Shown: positions 49,192 through 49,259 of the stretch, in pieces
Position numbering within the stretch: the stretch's first letter is position 1
How the letters are laid out: every line of letters starts with the position of its first letter
Source: Enterobacter phage vB_Ecl_SABI
DNA: 64,000 nt
Strand: one strand, 5' to 3'
Sequence record: PQ864023.1
The notes under the pieces: model-generated
What the model saw: the letters and a program-made list of their open reading frames with translations, nothing else
Told to the model about the DNA's origin: nothing
Databases searched by the model: none
Program-made: the position numbers and the translations under genes

Positions 49192-49244
49192 CTTCAGAAA
49201 AGAGAAAATTAAGTTATACAGACGCGCAAGCGTCAACTCACTCA

Positions 49245-49259
49245 ACGCACGGAGTGCGT
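49245..49259 (-). promoter_or_regulatory. hairpin ACGCAC-GGA-GTGCGT (6-bp stem, 3-nt loop); N4 vRNAP-type hairpin promoter candidate or RNA structure
   Basis: Perfect inverted repeat with 3-nt GGA loop on the plus (template) strand for leftward genes; same GCAC-GGA-GTGC core as 56127-56143. A second hairpin GACGC-GCAA-GCGTC sits at 49221-49234. Confidence 0.35.

Follow-up and report, generated by a model that had tools for sequence, protein, structure and literature searches.

Perfect palindromes with GGA loops recur between the genes of Enterobacter phage vB_Ecl_SABI, and the one at 49245-49259, close to the end of the early genes, raises the question of whether these elements are promoters and, if so, which RNA polymerase reads them. 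We addressed this question in a stretch of 64,000 nucleotides of the phage sequence (PQ864023.1), here called the window. A preliminary description of this DNA had proposed that the hairpins are promoters of the type used by the virion RNA polymerase (vRNAP) of phage N4 for its early genes. The window belongs to an N4-like phage of the Schitoviridae, near Cbunavirus, and the following genes bear on the question:

57 to 10928, plus strand: virion RNA polymerase gene, an ORF of 3623 aa that opens the window and is a hallmark of N4-like phages
51267 to 52247 and 49980 to 51254, minus strand: genes for the two subunits (326 aa and 424 aa) of RNAPII, a heterodimeric T7-like polymerase
52841 to 53125, minus strand: gene for a homolog of Drc, the ssDNA-binding cofactor of RNAPII (PHROG 6271, E 1.3e-15)

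The closest DNA matches of the RNAPII subunit genes, only 75 to 80% identical, come from Cbunavirus and related phages of Pectobacterium, Kosakonia, Escherichia, and Klebsiella. Genes run leftward from about 58.6 kb to 28.9 kb and again from 19.8 kb to 11.1 kb, and the plus strand is therefore their template. Homology with the first bases of the terminal repeat of Pectobacterium phage CB1 (TACTACTCTGGCTGTT) places the physical left genome end at about 58594, reading leftward; the window therefore comes from a permuted assembly. The early region extends from about 58.6 to 49.2 kb.

We first asked how many such hairpins there are. The three that had been described are exactly where they had been placed on the plus strand, namely, ACGCAC-GGA-GTGCGT at 49245-49259, AATGCAC-GGA-GTGCATT at 56127-56143, and GACGC-GCAA-GCGTC at 49221-49234, and at all three the plus strand is indeed the template of leftward genes. 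The hairpin at 56127 was also rightly said to lie between a terminator (56170-56151, minus strand) and the next start codon (56097). The two GGA-loop copies are thus real and recurrent, but four further intergenic members (47736-47752, 19869-19884, 18872-18889, and 14955-14970) had been missed. The six intergenic sites, given as coding-strand sequences with positions counted from the loop center, and the terminators that adjoin three of them are as follows:

56127 to 56143, minus strand: site B, AATGCAC-tcc-GTGCATT, followed by gtaATGAGTT, with a G at +14 (56121)
49245 to 49259, minus strand: site A, ACGCAC-tcc-GTGCGT, at the early/middle boundary, with a G at +13 (49239)
47736 to 47752, minus strand: site C, AATGCCC-tcc-GGGCATT, at a gene junction of the middle region, with GA at +13/+14
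19869 to 19884, minus strand: site D, GGGCAG-ttcc-CTGCCC, in the divergent gap that heads the second leftward (replication) cluster
18872 to 18889, minus strand: site F, AATGCCC-atcc-GGGCATT, followed by caATGAGgtagacATG, with a G at +13
14955 to 14970, minus strand: site E, ACGCAC-ttcc-GTGCGT, between the primase and Sak4-like genes
56151 to 56170, minus strand: intrinsic terminator directly upstream of site B
49166 to 49192, minus strand: intrinsic terminator that closes the early region, directly downstream of site A
14943 to 14926, minus strand: intrinsic terminator just after the site E hairpin

The 11-mer GCACGGAGTGC, which is common to the two hairpins described initially, occurred at least twice in 20 of 100 shuffled sequences when one mismatch was allowed and is not significant alone. 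As this exact repeat was uninformative, we tested the hairpin family instead, counting plus-strand hairpins that pair perfectly over 6 bp or more and have a GGA or GGAA loop. The window holds eight of these and a single one in the opposite orientation; 500 dinucleotide shuffles gave 0.23 on average and never more than 3. The family thus goes far beyond chance, but the proposed link to early genes is not supported, since only one of the six intergenic members, site B, lies within the early region, where it comes after a terminator. Three more family hairpins are found inside ORFs (at 44381, 36383, and 36741).

All six intergenic members have stems of 6 to 7 bp and GGA, GGAA, or GGAT loops on the template strand of leftward genes. 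The loop has 3 nt at sites A, B, and C and 4 nt (GGAA or GGAT) at sites D, E, and F; the closing pair is C:G at five of the six sites and G:C at site D, and three or four of the inner five stem pairs are G:C in every member. As single-stranded DNA, the six fold with -5.5 to -7.3 kcal/mol (z scores of -2.3 to -4.4; -5.5 kcal/mol and z -4.4 for site B). Stems recur in the genome: ACGCAC is shared by sites A and E, AATGCCC by sites C and F. Downstream of each hairpin there is a start-like G, at +13 (sites A, C, F, and E), +14 (site B), or +15 (site D). Site A overlaps the end of the last early-region ORF (49259-49507) at its stop codon, and the remaining four sites (C, D, F, and E) belong to middle or replication clusters, extending up to 38.7 to 43.6 kb from the left end. 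PHROG matches identified the genes for primase, Sak4, SSB, and thymidylate synthase, and site D lies 33 nt upstream of the thymidylate synthase gene. Sites resembling sigma-70 promoters are depleted near the hairpins (8 versus 26.9 expected and 3 versus 8.1 expected). At site B, an ATG inside the hairpin could have served as the start of an ORF (55906-56142); we rejected it in favor of the downstream ATG at 56097, because the former and its frame are not conserved in two metagenomic relatives (L007 and L008), whereas the latter is.

We then compared the family with the early promoters that the N4 vRNAP uses (Haynes and Rothman-Denes; Glucksmann 1992; Dai 1998; Gleghorn 2008; reviewed in PMC4496689). 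Read from NC_008720, with the template strand given 5' to 3', these are as follows:

P1: CCAT-AAGTTGC-GAA-GCAAC
P2, 557 to 573: CCAA-AAGAAGC-GGA-GCTTCTT
P3, 4546 to 4562: CCAA-AAGCTGC-GGA-GCAGCTT

The N4 P2 hairpin had been given correctly as GAAGC-GGA-GCTTC on the template (AAGAAGC-TCC-GCTTCTT on the coding strand at 557-573). Like P2 and P3, the hairpins of the window are template-strand hairpins in front of genes, with a GGA loop of the extrusion-prone G..A kind, a C:G closing pair, and a stem of matching length, 6 to 7 bp. Loop and closing pair being those of P2 and P3, recognition by vRNAP, with a start about 11 nt from the central loop G, is compatible with the sequence alone, either at all sites or only at site B, and it is at site B, in the early region and straight after a terminator, that it fits best. 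A G at +11 is found at sites A and C only. In N4, however, -9C and -8G are invariant in P1 to P3 and the start lies 11 nt from the loop center, an A/T spacer preceding the GG of the RNA, while here position -8 is A (sites A, B, D, and E) or C (sites C and F) and never G, and the conserved G is found at +13 to +15. The resemblance that had been proposed therefore holds for the loop, the closing pair, and the stem length but not for -8G, which is absent from all six sites.

The polymerase itself points the same way. In N4, where the loop consists of -10G, -11G, and -12A and is closed by the pair -9C:-13G, residues K114, R119, and W129 of vRNAP read the promoter loop, R904 reads -8G, and D901 reads -9C/-10G (PMC4496689). 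We found these residues at their published positions in gp50; in place of K114, R119, W129, D901, and R904, the vRNAP of the window has A, G, F, T, and T and that of LUZ7 has A, Y, Y, N, and K. Only the aromatic residue at W129, which stacks on the central loop base, is retained, a point in favor of vRNAP recognition, and the other four contacts are not conserved. With domain identities of just 17 to 29% in this three-way alignment, the loss of contact residues is supporting evidence of moderate weight. The recent structure papers on the N4 vRNAP hold nothing on promoter conservation in other schitoviruses.

Location argues further against vRNAP. N4-type promoters are confined to the leftmost early region, whereas four of the six sites here fall beyond the early region, the farthest 43.6 kb from the left end. 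Site A is not an internal early promoter: it lies past the last early gene, immediately ahead of the terminator of the early region. Moreover, the early region contains a second hairpin family, with the loop and closing pair C-ATA-G on the coding strand (C-TAT-G on the template), whose five copies all lie within 53.2 to 58.5 kb:

53198 to 53214, minus strand: AACGCGC-ata-GCGCGTT, directly upstream of the Drc gene, a candidate vRNAP early promoter
53563 to 53579, minus strand: sister copy
57063 to 57073, minus strand: sister copy
57716 to 57728, minus strand: sister copy
58496 to 58506, minus strand: sister copy, 89 to 99 nt from the inferred left end, with a C-tract before it at 31 to 36 nt

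All five carry T-G at +12/+13. The layout of the left end is common to the window and N4, in which the C-tract is at 32 to 40 and P1 at 88 to 104, and it is also found in LUZ7 (C-tract at 29 to 35, GGCC-ttc-GGCC at 81 to 91) and in CB1. A C-ATA-G hairpin thus occupies the position equivalent to P1, and another the position upstream of Drc. In the record of CB1 (KY514264), the nearest relative to have been described, three stem-loops annotated as "N4 early promoter" are C-ATA-G hairpins (Buttimer et al. 2018, PMC6027278), a family distinct from the GGA one; Pectobacterium phages CB1, CB3, and CB4 belong to the same phage group, and their predicted early hairpins have stems of 5 to 7 bp and 3-nt loops. 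GGA-loop hairpins are present in CB1 as well and are not annotated as promoters within the GenBank region examined. The template loops of the C-TAT-G hairpins lack the 5' G and the 3' A, bases that work on N4 found necessary for extrusion.

Apart from N4, LUZ7 is the only N4-like phage whose transcription starts have been mapped (PMC9163698). There the early promoters are hairpins with a conserved 3-nt loop, a stem of 4 bp or more, and a G start 13 to 14 nt from the hairpin center, and two strong ones, 33 nt apart, drive Drc (PMC9163698). We identified this tandem pair as AGACC-TAC-GGTCT at 3663 and CAGGC-TAC-GCCTG at 3695; all four C-TAC-G or C-TTC-G hairpins of the LUZ7 early region carry a G at +13, and the C-ATA-G family of the window follows the same spacing. 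The mapped early promoters of LUZ7 thus have a loop different from GGA. Judged from these sequence comparisons, the C-TAT-G hairpins appear to be better candidates than the GGA hairpins for vRNAP early promoters, and that vRNAP reads the GGA family, at all sites or at site B alone, seems unlikely.

We next examined whether the GGA hairpins are conserved. Among the early regions of Kc283, CB1, and EK8 and ten metagenomic relatives anchored on the large subunit of RNAPII, syntenic copies occur with compensatory changes in the stems. Both site A and site B were recovered from all Cbunavirus-like relatives whose corresponding region could be aligned (nine genomes for site A, counting the window, and eight for site B). 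Site C is found in most relatives, with other stems at syntenic positions in Kc283, EK8, and L006 to L009, and was not found in CB1 or L010. Stems vary by lineage, being ACGCAC or CTGGCC at site A, AATGCAC, GTGTGC, or TATGGCC at site B, and AATGCCC, GTGGCC, or AGTGCCC at site C, while loop and closing pair remain constant across lineages at all three sites.

As counting pairs in hairpins that had been selected for pairing would be circular, we used syntenic alignments anchored on the flanks; that of site A comprised 10 rows, the nine Cbunavirus-like genomes and LUZ7. The helix was 100% paired at site A, with three of five pairs changed on both sides, and likewise at site B (eight genomes), with four of seven pairs changed on both sides. 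No pair was changed on one side only, and shifting the 3' partner reduced pairing to 16 to 51%. All 22 changed cells at the two sites were double Watson-Crick swaps, with zero G-U intermediates, which suits an element kept as a perfect palindrome in DNA.

Conservation extends well beyond this group. We searched 80 loci anchored on primase for a GC-rich stem of at least 5 bp with a coding-strand loop of TCC, TTCC, CTCC, or GTCC just downstream of the primase gene, the position of site E. A perfect hairpin was found in 32 of them, spread over many divergent schitovirus lineages and including at least 15 different, unrelated stems. Among 48 distinct intergenic TCC hairpins, a T was found at +8 in 33 and a G at +13 in 20 or at +14 in 22, followed by A and then T-T. 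A start-like motif at a fixed distance is what a promoter would predict.

The same data bear on the possibility that the hairpin acts in RNA, as a stem-UCC-stem that binds a regulator of translation or stability, is a processing site, or forms part of a compound terminator. Any read-through transcript would contain the folded hairpin too, start codons follow several copies at a distance of 25 to 45 nt, and an intrinsic terminator comes within 10 to 60 nt of the hairpins at sites A and E, on their downstream side. The hairpins themselves do not qualify as intrinsic terminators, however: separate canonical terminators adjoin sites A, B, and E, and no T-run follows the hairpins, except weakly at site D (the sequences found instead are tgagtgag, gtaatgag, ctgcgact, and the like). 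Site D has nothing to terminate or regulate, because no leftward gene lies upstream of it. We also rejected the idea that the TCC hairpin contributes to the early terminator, given that the early/middle boundary of N4 has an ordinary terminator directly after gp16 that works with no such hairpin before it. The uniformly Watson-Crick replacements would be unusual for RNA helices, the mini-loop of the G..A type is stable only on template DNA, UCC having no special stability in RNA, and the G/TGA motif is conserved at a fixed distance downstream. A search of the hairpins against Rfam returned no family match. The missing T-runs and wobble pairs, together with a loop stable only on template DNA, thus make a role at the RNA level improbable.

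A DNA signal outside transcription, such as a primase or replication-initiation site or a target for recombination or a nuclease on the extruded hairpin, would account for the copies in the replication module (sites D, F, and E) and for the reuse of stems between A and E and between C and F. Such a signal gives no reason for the strict orientation with transcription, the placement before genes, the G motif at a fixed distance, or the fit to the transcript data of LUZ7 described below, and we regard it as highly improbable. Judged from their loop, their conservation, and the start-like G, the GGA-loop hairpins very probably serve as DNA-hairpin promoters on the template strand of an N4-like phage. 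This much of the initial proposal stands, while its assignment of the hairpins to vRNAP and to early genes is not supported.

To our knowledge, no middle promoters of N4-like phages had been described beyond those of N4 before four were mapped in LUZ7 in 2022. These four, determined by ONT-cappable-seq, are GC-rich hairpins with a stem of 6 bp or more and a loop of 3 to 4 nt, about 15 bp upstream of a G start, and are unlike the AT-rich middle promoters of N4 (Putzeys et al. 2022, PMC9163698). In the LUZ7 genome we found exactly four intergenic TCC-loop hairpins with stems of 6 to 7 bp, all before middle genes and all with a G at +14:

8238: directly downstream of the gene for the RNAPII large subunit; attGAGttgg and an intrinsic terminator come next
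9521: in front of gp29
35252: heading the second rightward replication cluster
39354: in the gap of 48 nt that separates primase gp63 from Sak4-like gp64

We infer that these are the four mapped middle promoters. The single transcription start at which the gp64-gp69 transcripts begin (PMC9163698) is consistent with the hairpin at 39354. By synteny, site A corresponds to the hairpin at 8238, site D to that at 35252, and site E to that at 39354. A small-RNA hotspot of LUZ7, considered as a counterpart of site A, was rejected, as it lies elsewhere (orf69-orf70).

LUZ7 and the window differ in genus and host group, LUZ7 being a Luzseptimavirus and the window a Cbunavirus-like enterobacterial phage, and their stems are unrelated in sequence. 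The window also has copies that LUZ7 lacks (site B in the early region, C, and F), and three of its loops have 4 nt. What both share is a stem of at least 6 bp, a loop of 3 to 4 nt, a G about 14 to 15 nt downstream, Drc, and a split RNAPII. Several traits of the LUZ7 middle promoters are found here, namely, the hairpin form, the spacing of the G, Drc together with a heterodimeric RNAPII, the lack of gp1 and gp2, of which we found no homolog in the window, and, with the exception of site B, syntenic positions. The Drc homolog belongs to PHROG 6271, which also takes in LUZ7 Drc, the "ssDNA binding RNA Polymerase cofactor" of Kc283, and CB1_20; it is 48 to 49% identical to the CB1 and Kc283 homologs and aligns with LUZ7 Drc across the segment holding Tyr23, the residue required for ssDNA binding in the LUZ7 protein (PMC7145618). 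At more distant loci, Drc and TCC hairpins are associated in a suggestive but imperfect manner (L012 and L013).

Taking these comparisons and the LUZ7 analogy together, we favor, with some reservation, the interpretation that the GGA hairpins are middle-class promoters used by the heterodimeric T7-like RNAPII with its ssDNA-binding cofactor Drc. Both the promoter role and the enzyme are what we infer from sequence and analogy. Negative supercoiling would extrude the perfect palindrome, and the GGA, GGAA, or GGAT loop on the template strand would close into a compact mini-loop of the G-A type, as in the unusually stable promoter hairpin of N4. Drc might then bind the unwound DNA and recruit RNAPII, which would start at the G located 13 to 15 nt downstream of the loop center, inside a T-G-A-(G) motif. 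Site A would act at the early/middle boundary, site B would restart transcription after the terminator inside the early region, and sites C, D, F, and E would drive the replication-gene clusters.

Middle-class promoters of this kind would explain why the family reaches the replication clusters 38.7 to 43.6 kb from the left end and why site D heads a cluster with no leftward gene upstream of it. The depletion of sigma-70-like sites would follow if the hairpins are the promoters of RNAPII and Drc. In N4, where 61 kb (early, middle, and part of the late region) were scanned, we found no TCC hairpin beyond P2 and P3, except for one chance copy inside an ORF, as would be expected from its use of gp2 and AT-rich middle promoters.

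Some observations count against RNAPII and Drc as the users of these sites. Site B lies inside the early region, upstream of the genes for Drc and RNAPII, and the terminators 10 to 60 nt after hairpins A and E would make an odd order for promoters unless read-through is substantial. Read-through is plausible, since LUZ7 terminators have been reported to be leaky (PMC9163698). The order of hairpin and then terminator is also seen at LUZ7 8238 and in Klebsiella-type phages. A broader proposal, which we regard as rather doubtful, is that one and the same GGA template hairpin is read by vRNAP in N4 and by RNAPII with Drc in the branch of LUZ7 and Cbunavirus, where it would be a family-wide middle promoter at fixed positions, and that the hairpin-terminator order may form a polymerase-specific gate or give a short RNA of about 80 nt. 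Such a gate would let the terminator stop early transcripts while RNAPII starting from the hairpin reads through.

The GGA hairpins of the window are probably further examples of the kind described for LUZ7 in 2022. To that kind they add that many schitovirus lineages have conserved both the GGA/TCC-loop signature and its genome positions and that N4 uses the same loop for its virion polymerase. If the GGA-loop hairpins are indeed of that class, a palindrome of 6 to 7 bp with an (N)TCC coding loop and a G at +13 to +15 would be a simple signature for annotating middle promoters in Cbunavirus-like phages as well as many uncultivated schitoviruses. The natural and probably wrong habit of equating every GGA-loop hairpin with a vRNAP promoter would be corrected as well, and the recruitment of RNAPII by Drc could be tested on a defined substrate.

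Finally, we looked at the other hairpin beside site A, which differs from the family in its loop:

49221 to 49234, minus strand: GACGC-ttgc-GCGTC, 7 to 20 nt downstream of the predicted site A start

Its stem and its 3' flank, TG(C/T)ATAACTT, are invariant in all Cbunavirus-like relatives, and its loop varies among them (ttgc, tttc, tct, or cct, giving GACGC-N3-4-GCGTC). It is possibly a 5'-proximal RNA stem-loop of the site A transcript or a protein-binding site.

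The second hairpin family of the window, which carries C-ATA-G on the coding strand and C-TAT-G on the template strand, has the following members:

58496-58506, ATA-family hairpin, the first copy
57716-57728, ATA-family hairpin
57063-57073, ATA-family hairpin
53563-53579, ATA-family hairpin
53198-53214, ATA-family hairpin, directly upstream of the gene for Drc, the ssDNA-binding cofactor of RNAPII

Within the window these hairpins were found only in the early region, and positions +12 and +13 are TG in all five. The first copy lies 89 to 99 nt from the inferred genome end, and in N4 the equivalent position is occupied by the early promoter P1. 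The ATA-family hairpins are likely to be promoters of the virion RNA polymerase (vRNAP). For two of them, the ATG of the downstream ORF coincides with positions +11 to +13 (57709-57711 and 53558-53560), and neither ORF has a Shine-Dalgarno sequence. Either these ORFs are translated from leaderless mRNAs, with an A start at the N4 spacing, or their starts are misplaced, with a G start at the LUZ7 spacing.

The physical end of the genome falls inside the window, indicating that the assembly is permuted:

about 58594, left genome end, matching the start of the terminal repeat of Pectobacterium phage CB1
58559-58564, C-tract near this end

A C-tract followed by a hairpin at the left end is common to the window, N4, LUZ7, and CB1. 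Matches to sigma-70-like promoters were strongly depleted, both at 46500-59700 (8 versus 26.9 expected) and at 14700-20000 (3 versus 8.1 expected), which fits with transcription by phage polymerases.

Turning to the GGA-loop hairpins read as candidate middle promoters, we observed that the stem ACGCAC occurs at both 49245 (site A) and 14955 (site E), and the stem AATGCCC at both 47736 (site C) and 18872 (site F). Since the same stems recur at distant sites, promoter modules seem to have been duplicated or homogenised within the genome. Perfect hairpins with TCC or TTCC loops on the coding strand also occur within ORFs, in a number exceeding the chance prediction:

44367-44381, found in 98%-identical relatives and missing from 75% relatives
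36369-36383
36726-36741

These copies may act as internal promoters or may have arisen by chance. At site B, comparison of the window (56087-56143) with the Cbunavirus-like, 100%-RNAPII relative L006 (5395-5445) showed that in L006 different sequence starts right behind the hairpin and GTAATGAGTT, a mosaic junction coinciding with the end of the putative promoter module.

An intrinsic terminator stands close behind the candidate hairpin promoter at several loci:

49166-49259, site A
14926-14970, site E
8238-8303 in LUZ7 (L005), syntenic with site A
about 8162-8210 in L024 to L032

This order, the opposite of the usual terminator-then-promoter arrangement, is kept from LUZ7 through Klebsiella-type phages.

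Two further elements lie near site A:

49221-49234, GACGC-loop-GCGTC hairpin, followed by TG(C/T)ATAACTT at 49209-49220
49101-49123, AACTTCTATAGAAGTT and GTTCTAGAAC, both perfect palindromes, which overlap each other

The GACGC/GCGTC stem and its flank are unchanged in all Cbunavirus-like relatives, unlike the adjacent GGA hairpin, which covaries. As the stem is constant while the loop varies, this hairpin may form a 5' stem-loop in the RNA or mark a sequence-specific site. The palindromes could represent an operator; the gap in which they lie is AT-rich and separates the early terminator from the first middle gene, which starts at 49014.

The remaining features are as follows:

58651-59432, three small leftward ORFs beyond the left end
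63852-64000, minus strand, two tRNA genes at the right window edge, the second truncated by the window end

The three ORFs are right-end ORFans comparable to LUZ7 gp87-115. The sequence ATTATTTTTAT(A/G)G stands upstream of at least two of them, and tatgaggaaa-ttt-ATG leads into two; these repeated upstream sequences may constitute another promoter or RBS module.
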